A stretch of 45,785 nucleotides of DNA. Origin: Candidatus Falkowbacteria bacterium RIFOXYD12_FULL_34_57 (lineage in GTDB: Bacteria > Patescibacteriota > Patescibacteriia > Patescibacteriales > UBA12075). Numbering within the stretch: the stretch's first letter is position 1; every line of letters starts with the position of its first letter. The notes under the pieces were generated by a model. The model had not been told where the DNA came from and made no database searches. It saw nothing but the letters and a program-made list of their open reading frames with translations. The position numbers and the translations under genes are program-made. The DNA lies in assembly GCA_001780285.1 (NCBI GenBank), contig MFGN01000015.1, positions 1-45,785 of the forward strand, given 5' to 3'. Shown here piece by piece: positions 36,842 to 39,334 of the stretch.

Positions 36842-37002
36842 AGTAGTTTATATTAATGTATTAAATAAAAGAACTTGAAGCAATAAAACCTAAATATAAT
36901 CTTCGTTGATTTATTTTAAAAAACCAACTAAAATTATATTATAAAATCCTCAAAAGCTTATTCTTATTATATCACAAATTAACCCGATTTTTAAGTCATT
37001 AT

Positions 37003-38493
37003 ATGCTAATATTTATTTTCACTTTTTATTTATTGTTTCTATTTCTGGCTATCAAGCGAGTTGATTGGGCCTTAATGCTTCTTTTGGCGATGCTCCCCTC
37101 CTATTTAATCCGTTTTTCAGTTTTTGGTATTCCTGCTACCTTGCTGGAAATGATGATTCTTATTTGTTTTACGGTTTGGTTTGTGCAGAAAACTGAATTT
37201 AAAAATTTTCTTAGGGGAAAATATGGTTGGAGAGATTTTTTTATTAATAAGAAAAAAAGAGCTTCTTATCTTTTTGCTCCAGAAATCGCCTTGTGGCTAA
37301 TTGTCTCTTACATCGCCATGATTCCCTCGGGTTTTAGTAATGCTTCTTTTGGCATCTGGAAAGCTTATTTTTTTGAACCGCTACTTGTTTACATTCTAAT
37401 TATAAATATTTTCAAACCCGGACAAAAATCTTTTCAAAAGATTATTTTACCACTTGCTATCTCTACTTGCGCGCTTTCCTTAATAGCTATCTTTCAAAAA
37501 TTCACCGGGTTGTTCGTCGTAGAACATTTTCTGCCTCGCGTCACATCTGTCTTTTCATACCCCAATGCGCTAGGACTATTTCTTGCGCCGATAATTTTAA
37601 TTTTAATCGGATTTTTAATTCAAGAACTTACAAATTTTCCACCCAGAGCGGATCAGCCTCCGGCTGAAAAAAATAAAGGACAATCCTGCCAGCTTTGCCA
37701 AAAATATAATTTGATATTATTCTTAATTACTTCTGTTATTTTGTCGCTTTCTGCAATTTATTTTGCGAGTTCAGAAGGGGCTTTGGTTGGAGTGTTGGCC
37801 GGATTGATTGCTTTCGGAATACTAGCTAACAAAAAATCCCGCATAACCACGATTATTATTTTAATTATTTTAAGCGGTGCCACTTTCACCATCCCTAAAT
37901 TAAAAAGTTACGCTCTGCAAAAAGTTACCCTAAAAGATTTATCAGGCGAAATCCGCAAACAACAATGGCGGGAGACATGGACCATGCTCCATGACGGTAA
38001 CAAAATTTTGGGTTCTGGCTTGTCAAATTACCAAAATAAGATAGCGCCTTATCACCAAGAGGGAATATTTTTTAATTTTTCCAATGATCCAGATTTCCGC
38101 CGAAAAATAGTCATCTTTGATGACAAATACCGCGCCGAGCATTGGCAGCCAGTGGAGATCTACATGTATCCGCATAACATCCTTCTAAATTTCTGGACAG
38201 AAATTGGATTCTTAGGAATGCTTGTCTTCGTCTGGATTGTAGACAAATTCTTCATAATAGCTATTCAAAATTCAAAATTCAAAATTCAAAATTCAAACTA
38301 TTTTTTAAATTTAGGTTTAACGTGTTCCATGGTAACAATTATAGTCCACGGTCTTGTAGATGTTCCCTATTTTAAAAACGATCTCTCGGTTATATTTTGG
38401 GTAATTATCGCCCTGATAAGCTTAATTAAATTATCCAACTCCATTAAACCCGATAATCCAAACTACGAGCCAAAACCAAAAACCAAAAAATAA
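37003..38493 (+). CDS. O-antigen ligase / Wzy_C-family membrane protein (WaaL/PglL-like).
   Basis: Polytopic. The periplasmic-loop pattern R..W(x)n GSGLSNY ... YPHNILLNFWTEIGFLG matches the Wzy_C R...W / G.G.G / HN.yL...E.G..G signature. Confidence 0.55.
   Translation: MLIFIFTFYLLFLFLAIKRVDWALMLLLAMLPSYLIRFSVFGIPATLLEMMILICFTVWFVQKTEFKNFLRGKYGWRDFFINKKKRASYLFAPEIALWLIVSYIAMIPSGFSNASFGIWKAYFFEPLLVYILIINIFKPGQKSFQKIILPLAISTCALSLIAIFQKFTGLFVVEHFLPRVTSVFSYPNALGLFLAPIILILIGFLIQELTNFPPRADQPPAEKNKGQSCQLCQKYNLILFLITSVILSLSAIYFASSEGALVGVLAGLIAFGILANKKSRITTIIILIILSGATFTIPKLKSYALQKVTLKDLSGEIRKQQWRETWTMLHDGNKILGSGLSNYQNKIAPYHQEGIFFNFSNDPDFRRKIVIFDDKYRAEHWQPVEIYMYPHNILLNFWTEIGFLGMLVFVWIVDKFFIIAIQNSKFKIQNSNYFLNLGLTCSMVTIIVHGLVDVPYFKNDLSVIFWVIIALISLIKLSNSIKPDNPNYEPKPKTKK
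38263..38297 (+). repeat. Perfect heptanucleotide tandem repeat (attcaaa)x5 inside the O-antigen-ligase-family CDS, encoding IQNSKFKIQNSN.
   Basis: Counted directly. The 7-bp unit is not a multiple of 3. Confidence 0.9.
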
Positions 38494-38578
38494 TACCGCC
38501 CCCCCCTTTTTTTGTTGTTCCTGAACTTGATTTAGAACAACTCAAAGGAAACAAGAAAGGCCTAAAAGACTTTTTAAA

Positions 38579-38650
38579 GTCTCCACCCAAGGCGCTGTGT
38601 CCGCCTTGGGCGGAGACAGCGCCTTTCCATGCCCGCCTCGGACGGGGGCG
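38579..38650. other. GC-rich structured island in an AT-rich genome: a 16-bp hairpin gtctccacccaaggcg/cgccttgggcggagac plus an adjacent GC-rich stem. A candidate small structured RNA or recombination site.
   Basis: Local GC is well above the window average. The inverted repeat is read directly. A UUCG-tetraloop hairpin cccttcggg lies at 38714-38722. Confidence 0.35.
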
Positions 38651-38824: not shown

Positions 38825-39316
38825 TTAAACGGAAATATCTTTAAAAAATGGTTTAAACCAGCCATAAACTTTGGACTCTTCCGGATATATAATCAGAGAA
38901 AGTGTCCTCTCCCATTCTTTGATGTCCTGTTCTATGCTATGACGGACAACATCCATTGCCGGACTACATTTAGGACAATTGGATAAGTGTTTATGAGATA
39001 AGCCATCCTGAAACCAGTGATACAGTTCCGTGTTCCCCATCTGTTGCGCTTTCTTCAAATCATTCAATTTTCCCTGTGCCAACTGCTCGCCCACCATTAT
39101 TTCTTGATATTTTTTAATATACCCACCTAAGGAGTTAGCTAATTTAAAAAAAATAATATAAATAACTATACCTGAAAACCCTATTACCAATCCAAGGAGT
39201 AAAAAAGTTTTTATTAAGCTACAAAAAACGAGAAAACTCGTAGTTAAAAGCAAAAGAGTTTTAGATGCTATTAAAATCCTTTCTTGAATTTTTTGTACAC
39301 TTTTCAATTTTTCCAC
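38825..39316 (-). CDS. Paralog 1 of a tandem 2-TM membrane protein family (163 aa).
   Basis: N-terminal 2 TM then ~100-aa soluble domain. Shared pattern ...NGW/HWF...KHKDL/HKHL...YPEE.KVY.WF with paralogs 2 and 3. Confidence 0.55.
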   Translation of the reverse strand: MEKLKSVQKIQERILIASKTLLLLTTSFLVFCSLIKTFLLLGLVIGFSGIVIYIIFFKLANSLGGYIKKYQEIMVGEQLAQGKLNDLKKAQQMGNTELYHWFQDGLSHKHLSNCPKCSPAMDVVRHSIEQDIKEWERTLSLIIYPEESKVYGWFKPFFKDISV

Positions 39317-39334
39317 AATTCCATCCTTTAAATT

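Follow-up and report, generated by a model that had tools for sequence, protein, structure and literature searches.

The window analysed here is a stretch of 45,785 nt (contig MFGN01000015.1, positions 1 to 45,785) from Candidatus Falkowbacteria bacterium RIFOXYD12_FULL_34_57, an uncultured groundwater bacterium of the Candidate Phyla Radiation (CPR), and our subject is a perfect heptanucleotide microsatellite, (ATTCAAA)x5, that lies in frame inside a gene for a membrane protein of the Wzy_C/O-antigen-ligase family. A first-pass annotation of this DNA had proposed the tract as a slipped-strand phase-variation switch, but the claim of a contingency switch is weakened by our comparative data. 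The tract is probably a product of heptamer-biased slippage that an unconstrained loop tolerates, with the reading frame kept by purifying selection. This reading rests on an excess of tandem repeats of period 7 among homologous loci, on four loops that act as hotspots for them, on similar tracts in housekeeping genes and on the fact that no off alleles were seen.

The repeat tract and its host gene

The tract, its gene and the parts of the gene that follow the tract are listed below in coordinates of the window.

38263..38297, + strand: perfect heptanucleotide microsatellite (ATTCAAA)x5 (window sequence, Tandem Repeats Finder, simulations)
37003..38493, + strand: gene for a polytopic membrane protein of 496 amino acids, Wzy_C / O-antigen-ligase family (open reading frame, Pfam, AlphaFold2)
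38298..38493, + strand: C-terminal 64 codons and stop codon, out of frame after a change of one or two units (simulated alleles)
38347..38385, + strand: codons of HGLVDVPYFKNDL, the block best conserved in the family (residues 449-461)

The repeat is exact, as first annotated: its 35 nt contain no mismatch, the period-7 register stops precisely at 38263 and 38297, and the reading frame through it gives IQNSKFKIQNSN (residues 421-432). Tandem Repeats Finder (TRF) reports period 7, 5.0 copies, 100 % matches and a score of 70, the top of the 86 rows for the window, and among perfect tracts with units of 4-9 nt and at least 3 copies (ATTCAAA)x5 alone is longer than 13 nt in the 45.8 kb. It is also beyond chance, as had been claimed, since the window was simulated 2000 times with a third-order Markov model and the period-7 maximum was 24 nt, with 21 nt reached in 16 simulations and 28 nt in none. 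The tract is no assembly artefact, because the ENA MEGAHIT re-assembly (100.000 % identity over 7.5 kb) and the JGI assembly (100.000 % identity over 4.75 kb), both of which cover it, are identical to the window there.

The assignment of the gene to the O-antigen-ligase family held up. Pfam Wzy_C (PF04932) matches residues 244-410 with an E-value of 1.6e-14 and a score of 54.4 bits, where the cut-off is 31.7, and is present in 120 of 120 homologues. The sequence profile of the family matches no solved structure; for the AlphaFold2 model of the protein (pLDDT 83.1, pTM 0.85, ~13 helices), the closest fold in the PDB is WaaL (7TPG_B of entry 7TPG, E 5e-6, TM-scores 0.56/0.67), and the next is FtsW at E >0.03. 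The protein shares with WaaL and other Wzy_C members a polytopic architecture and a large loop ahead of the last three helices. GenBank starts the gene later, at 37075, which gives a product of 472 amino acids. The protein is 100 % identical to the hypothetical protein OGF26892.1 of Candidatus Falkowbacteria bacterium RIFOXYB2_FULL_34_18 and is found under four accessions of metagenome-assembled genomes (MAGs). The window is chromosomal, because it also holds a 16S rRNA gene, a transfer-messenger RNA gene and 11 tRNA genes.

CPR bacteria are generally considered to be without an outer membrane and lipopolysaccharide. For this reason a protein- or cell-wall-linked glycan, as handled by an O-oligosaccharyltransferase of the PglL/PilO type or a polymerase, is the more likely substrate of the enzyme, rather than O-antigen.

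The tract lies 85 % along the gene. In the model it codes for the end of a helix (residues 393-424) and for the loop 425-432, which is followed by a helix at 433-452. This loop and the other variable loops are predicted to be cytoplasmic, judging by the parity of the modelled helices counted from a Lys-rich C-terminal tail. The stretch from 38298 to 38493 encodes the last two predicted transmembrane helices, 433-452 and 459-480, and includes the block H449-L461, in which 12 of 13 positions (H449, G450, V452, D453, V454, P455, Y456, F457, K458, N459, D460 and L461) do not vary among 22 homologues of 48-55 % identity.

Simulated alleles bore out the expectation that gain or loss of one unit would throw the C-terminus out of frame. 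The products would have 432 amino acids with 4 copies, 459 with 6, 452 with 3 and 439 with 7, and all of these out-of-frame alleles lose residues 433-496, whereas alleles of 2 and 8 copies keep the reading frame. Because the two helices and the invariant C-terminal block go together, such truncation would likely inactivate the enzyme. The tract could thus, mechanically, act as a frameshift switch.

Period-7 repeats recur at four loops of homologous genes

The comparison set consisted of 80 species-level homologous loci, the best 80 of at least 571 genomic homologues, with 590 kb of DNA in all and 114 kb in the Wzy_C genes themselves. Tracts were counted if perfect and of at least 2.5 copies, and expectations were taken from Markov simulations. 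Period 7 was represented by 73 tracts where 1.6 were expected, a ~45-fold excess. The other periods were near expectation, with 11 against 10.7 at period 5 and 2 against 0.3 at period 8, save for period 6, where 27 tracts against 7.6 expected make a 3.5-fold excess. Inside the 114 kb of Wzy_C genes the pattern was the same, with 40 tracts of period 7 and 0, 3, 5, 1 and 0 tracts of periods 3, 5, 6, 8 and 9, respectively.

The 40 in-gene tracts are all confined to four loops, at residues 62-76, 136-141, 207-233 and 418-427 of the query, and 26 of the 80 genes have at least one. The loop that carries the repeat in the window is occupied by a tract in 13 of the 80 genes, among them that of a Parcubacteria MAG (L008, 49 % identical) with (ATTCAAA)4.4, but the units there are of ten different kinds. 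Where the first-pass annotation had asked whether homologues carry the repeat, the site proved to be shared and the units to vary. Arrays in homologues have 2.6-6.1 units, mostly ~4.5, and arrays of different units can stand next to each other, as in L074, where (TTACAAA)6.1 is followed by (AAAATCC)2.7, and in L025 and L005, with two arrays each.

As 7 has no common factor with 3, a repeat of heptamers yields the same cyclic heptapeptide in every frame, and variable-loop peptides of the aligned homologues, such as IQNSKFKIQN, ITNYKLQITN, ISNFQFPISN, IGNWKLEIGN and IRNPKSEIRN, are translated heptamer repeats. A fixed site with changing units and perfect arrays points to ongoing turnover at the level of DNA and not to a conserved peptide. 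Two observations together had been named in advance as speaking against a switch, a copy number that never changes and a repeat that encodes a conserved peptide in homologues. The first is what the available data show; the second is not, as homologues keep the periodicity of the DNA and change the units.

Differences between close relatives are of several kinds, namely in-frame steps of 7 amino acids or 21 nt (NYKLQIT, NWKLEIG), mini-insertions and, in one strain, replacement of the whole loop. Among homologues of at least 65 % identity, indels of 7 amino acids make up 24 unique events, as against 20 at 6 and 8 at 8 amino acids, a weak bump that we do not use as evidence; raw pair counts of indels are inflated by redundancy.

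In L074, an (ATTTTAT)5.7 array at 2093-2132 codes for part of an N-terminal transmembrane helix (FIFYILYFIFYIF), so heptamer arrays occur beyond hydrophilic loops too.

Heptamer tracts in housekeeping genes

Similar tracts are not limited to genes for surface enzymes. The neighbouring RsuA-like pseudouridine synthase has heptamer tracts in one loop in five species, and a metagenome scan for (ATTCAAA)3 matched at least 120 contigs with a GC content of 22 to 68 %. On contigs of low GC the repeat was found in frame in the genes for methionyl-tRNA synthetase (MetRS, 4.7 copies), leucyl-tRNA synthetase (LeuRS, 3.6 copies), TrmD (5.0 copies) and phosphoglycerate kinase (PGK, 4.6 copies), and further in-frame tracts of at least 3 copies lie in genes for MiaA, MnmA, a MiaB-like enzyme and a family 2 glycosyltransferase. 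MetRS, LeuRS, TrmD and PGK cannot be phase-variable. The presence of (ATTCAAA) at 4.6-5.0 copies in essential genes therefore marks such tracts as tolerated insertions and not as dedicated switches, and as these genes must stay on, tracts of this length would have to be fairly stable and would make poor switches.

Among the matches listed, (ATTCAAA)n tracts mostly measure 22-34 nt (median 27, mode 24 nt) and form a secondary cluster at 30-34 nt (~4.3-4.9 copies), and no allelic series, that is, shared flanks with differing copy number, was seen by eye in 122 (ATTCAAA)3 tracts. In many cases the metagenome tracts stand directly beside other heptamer arrays, such as (GAGTTAT)n-(AATTCAA)7.3-(GGCAAAA)n in L202 and (TTGCTGG)n-(TCAAAAT)8.3 in L147. 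On GC-rich contigs among the matches listed (L085-L204), (ATTCAAA)n forms an AT-rich island.

No length variants in the data searched

The copy number was 5 in all contigs that bear the gene, at least 11 in number and all from one clone. Ten predicted products of alleles with 2, 3, 4, 6, 7 and 8 copies, from both start codons, had no exact counterpart among ~15 billion proteins. Comparison at strain level is impossible with such data, because the nearest relative outside the clone is only ~54 % identical. A metagenome scan anchored on the flanks with a variable gap, whose pattern was confirmed to match the window itself, gave no matches, the 5-copy allele included, and is uninformative since the collection does not hold this contig. 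In a search with the N-terminal 415 amino acids, none of 120 cluster representatives ended at loop 3, which is a weak test because representatives tend to be the longest member of a cluster, and the genes were intact in 80 of 80 genomic homologues. Actual switching, which the first-pass annotation had implied, is unsupported by these data, and off variants, if there are any, are probably rare and transient.

Among the cluster members of ten homologues the sole allele that ends in loop 3 was P0158. We rejected it as an off allele made by unit slippage, since its cause is a 58-nt deletion that abuts the tract. Frameshifts were also seen in two homologue clusters in the large loop ahead of the last three helices, in one just before and in the other just after the codons for 'HEK'. 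As no heptamer is present there, the alleles concerned (P0152/P0153 and P0162) were likewise rejected as products of heptamer slippage. From the protein sequences we suspect an A-run as their cause, and they may be real variants or sequencing errors.

Other features of the gene and its surroundings

The gene contains a second, shorter heptamer tract.

38472..38489, + strand: (AAAACCA)x2.6 in the same gene (TRF period 7, 100 % matches)

It encodes the Lys/Pro-rich C-terminal tail KPKPKTKK. Five nucleotides past the stop codon, at 38499-38513, a run of C8 is directly followed by a run of T7; a C homopolymer of this length is unusual for a genome of ~33 % GC.

Another variable loop of the gene holds a GC-rich double palindrome, TCCACCCAGAGCGGATCAGCCTCCGGCTGA, at 37638-37667, which lies in frame and encodes FPPRADQPPAEK. 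Near-identical copies of the pattern TTTCCGCCnnAGGCGGATC[AC]GCCTnnGGC[GT]GA occur in L017, L052 and L053 and at three sites in L047, four CPR loci besides the window, and the peptide FPPKADQPLAEG was found in loop 3 of the homologue P0092. The palindrome looks like a small element inserting in frame, similar to repetitive extragenic palindromes (REP) or miniature inverted-repeat transposable elements (MITE). A nested GC-rich palindrome at 38579-38625, ~90 nt downstream of the stop codon, consists of two inverted repeats that overlap, both 16-17 nt long and 94 % complementary. Its core, TCCGCC-N4-GGCGGA, is related to that in-frame element, and the palindrome could be a further copy of the mini-element or else a terminator.

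Two strains represented by L205 and L206 (P0120 and P0126) are told apart in loop 3 by a 21-nt GC-rich insert, TCACCGCCTGAGCGGGACGGG, within a (GTTATNN)4 array, and their upstream flanks differ by one substitution in ~150 aligned nt. In a third strain (P0127) the entire loop 3 is replaced. The insert resembles the tiny mobile repeats that are reportedly nested in heptamer arrays of cyanobacteria.

Downstream of the Wzy_C gene, on the - strand at 38825-40364, lie three tandem paralogous genes for small membrane proteins of 163, 162 and 172 amino acids, none of which has a match in Pfam. The last two have VYNFFEKLFTKLHLI as their common C-terminal motif, and the first has a related one, VYGWFKPFFKDISV.

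Discussion

Our results suggest a course of events in which replication slippage would create a heptamer repeat in a short, weakly constrained and presumably cytoplasmic loop of a glycan ligase or polymerase with the WaaL fold. This would be one outcome of a habit of the whole lineage, in which tandem repeats of 7 nt are made far more often than those of other periods. A heptamer repeat without stop codons would then persist in an open reading frame (ORF) where the protein can bear additional residues and the overall length leaves the frame intact; it can do so because it gives the same stop-free cyclic heptapeptide in all three frames. Alleles changed by one or two units, truncated before the invariant C-terminal motif, would be purged by purifying selection, and in-frame lengths would stay. 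Both slippage as the origin of the tract and a low rate of switching are inferred from these comparisons.

The background for such a course is found in other bacteria. Heptanucleotides are the commonest class of long simple sequence repeats (SSRs) in most bacterial genomes, which has been attributed to polymerase slippage, with the suggestion that it is favoured at ~7 nt as the length of DNA held by the polymerase, and coding regions normally show units that are multiples of three (PMC4679880; PMC4692102). [quoted passage not shown] However, those arrays are mainly intergenic, whereas the arrays seen here are in frame and recur at the same loops of orthologues; the latter are also AT-rich, with an AATT-type core, and do not form G-quadruplexes.

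Rickettsia palindromic elements are dispersed palindromes of ~100-150 bp. They too represent short repeat DNA that sits in frame in surface loops of unrelated proteins, housekeeping enzymes included, but the repeats described here are mainly 7-nt tandem repeats generated locally. A further likeness is that GC-rich palindromic mini-inserts occupy the same loops.

The strongest competitor of slippage with tolerance is an adaptive contingency locus, in which selection keeps the repeat as a slipped-strand on/off switch, so that a subpopulation would be without the WaaL-like enzyme and hence without the surface glycan. As part of the same proposal, the switch would be a bet-hedge against recognition by phages or hosts, a strategy shared across the CPR family. 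We consider this unlikely, at something like one chance in four for the proposal as a whole. Precedents exist in the phase variation of the glycosylation gene pglE of Neisseria meningitidis through a heptanucleotide repeat (PMC7157529) and in the in-ORF (AATTTTG)14 of hmw1A in Haemophilus influenzae strain PittAA (PMC2651432). The tract in the window resembles them in being a perfect in-ORF repeat in the gene of a surface-glycan enzyme, with a unit of 7 nt that is not a multiple of three, so that a change of one unit shifts the frame and removes the invariant C-terminal block. Its 5 units are exactly the minimum that PhasomeIt sets for units of four, five or more nucleotides, with the remark that a mutation rate of less than 1e-5 is possible for tracts of this kind (PMC6321876).

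Several differences from those loci speak for the tolerated by-product. The data searched hold neither length polymorphism of the tract nor off alleles, the one candidate, P0158, being a deletion. Arrays of the family are short, with 5 units in the window, compared to up to 14-38 in arrays of H. influenzae (PMC2651432), and the tract, unlike tuned phase-variable SSRs with their bias to the 5' end (PMC3315296), stands in the 3' part of its gene. Moreover, (ATTCAAA) tracts of like length lie in essential genes, heptamer tracts lie in the housekeeping pseudouridine synthase, and the host is an uncultured CPR bacterium; we found no literature report that ties CPR bacteria or Patescibacteria to heptanucleotide repeats or phase variation. 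The statement that the tract has the classic architecture of contingency loci is not supported, given its position in the gene and the in-frame heptamer tracts of essential genes.

Some of our observations weigh against a mere by-product and in favour of a selected switch. The density of tracts per 100 kb is 38.5 in Wzy_C genes, 3.1 in other ORFs (~12 times lower) and 19.8 in non-ORF DNA (~2 times lower); of the tracts in the 80 loci, the Wzy_C genes hold 44, the other ORFs hold 12 and the non-ORF DNA holds 17. The bias is stronger for arrays of at least 4 copies, of which there are 15 in the 114 kb of Wzy_C genes and a single one in the 86 kb of non-ORF DNA, but none in the 390 kb of other ORFs, so that 15 of the 16 long arrays in the 590 kb belong to this family. 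A density above that of non-coding DNA does not obviously follow from pure tolerance. Perfect arrays of 4-6 units in proteins that are only ~50 % identical indicate recent or ongoing expansion, and a surface-glycan enzyme is the classic kind of target for phase variation. The means by which we looked for off alleles also had a bias of their own: the 80 loci and 120 proteins were chosen by score, clustering favours the longest member, both of which hide truncated alleles, and since all copies of the gene come from one clonal population and are known from assemblies only, minority off alleles are possible there. To these points can be added that several homologues have heptamer arrays a short way upstream of the Wzy_C start codon. 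They are listed here with positions in the respective loci, for L020 together with the array beyond the 3' end of the gene.

L020, 3902-3931 and 5514-5537: heptamer arrays
L010, 3966-3987: heptamer array
L022, 2827-2846: heptamer array
L061, 1096-1113: heptamer array

The units upstream of start codons are (CGCATAA)4.3, (CTCATAA)3.1, (CATAACC)2.9 and (CAAATAA)2.6, and in L020 the unit of the upstream array reappears just beyond the 3' end of the gene. Such arrays might affect the spacing of the promoter or the 5' untranslated region. The gene in the window has no heptamer array upstream of it at 36842-37002.

It is because the enrichment of long arrays in the Wzy_C family is unexplained that we leave the adaptive switch the weight it has. 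A wider form of the proposal, in which the presumably cytoplasmic loop arrays are selected mutable switches across Falkowbacteria and related CPR bacteria, and so the first phase-variation system of the CPR, with stochastic shedding of glycan, is more doubtful still, nearer to one chance in six. Selection on switches would explain why long arrays are ~10-fold denser in the Wzy_C gene than in non-coding DNA.

Function at the level of the peptide, in which selection would act on (IQNSKFK)n itself, for instance in the role of a basic cytoplasmic loop to fix topology or to bind a partner, appears very improbable. All four hotspot loops are predicted to be cytoplasmic, by helix parity in the model and the Lys-rich tail, and some of the repeats are rich in Lys, which would suit such a role. 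However, units at one and the same loop encode unrelated peptides of the IQNSKFK, ITNYKLQ, IGNWKLE, IRNQKSE, ITNYELR and ISDFGFR types, on which ground we rejected a peptide motif; many homologues have no repeat at the loop, the tracts seen are perfect in their DNA, and the only common feature is the 7-nt period of the DNA.

Hardly any more credit, and if anything slightly less, can be given to a cis-acting element in the nucleic acid, be it an antisense promoter, an array for a protein of the oligonucleotide-binding (OB-fold) or cold-shock-like kind, or a site of translation pausing after a transmembrane helix. Proteins that bind heptamers have been suggested for TAACTGA repeats (PMC4679880), and the minus strand shows TTGAAT-17 nt-TATTAT at 38282..38254, with 9 of 12 matches to a promoter. 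Yet the number of promoter-like sites in the region, 12 against 7.7 +/- 2.6, is within chance, and the antisense promoter was rejected for this reason; units at the same site are wholly different between species, and no Rfam family was found at the tract. Finally, short reads can mis-assemble tandem repeats, but an artefact of assembly or sequencing has a negligible probability for a 35-nt tract that is identical in the GenBank MAG contig, the MEGAHIT k141 re-assembly and the JGI assembly, is well under read length, does not interrupt the ORF and is paralleled by tracts in 26 of 80 independent genomes.

Examination of this tract has bearings beyond the single gene. Repeat architecture alone is insufficient to call phase variation in genomes of this kind, and this calls for caution. 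Should the tract switch, it would be a contingency locus for a surface glycan in uncultured CPR bacteria, with a bearing on how episymbionts evade phages or change hosts. Even if the tract is a by-product, the comparison is of use: Falkowbacteria-like genomes show a ~45-fold excess of 7-nt repeats, specific to that period and placed in frame at recurrent loops of orthologues. Heptamer repeats account for odd low-complexity peptides, such as IQNSKFK, ITNYKLQ and ISNFQFP, in the proteomes of these bacteria, and they mark the loops that bear them as mutational hotspots.

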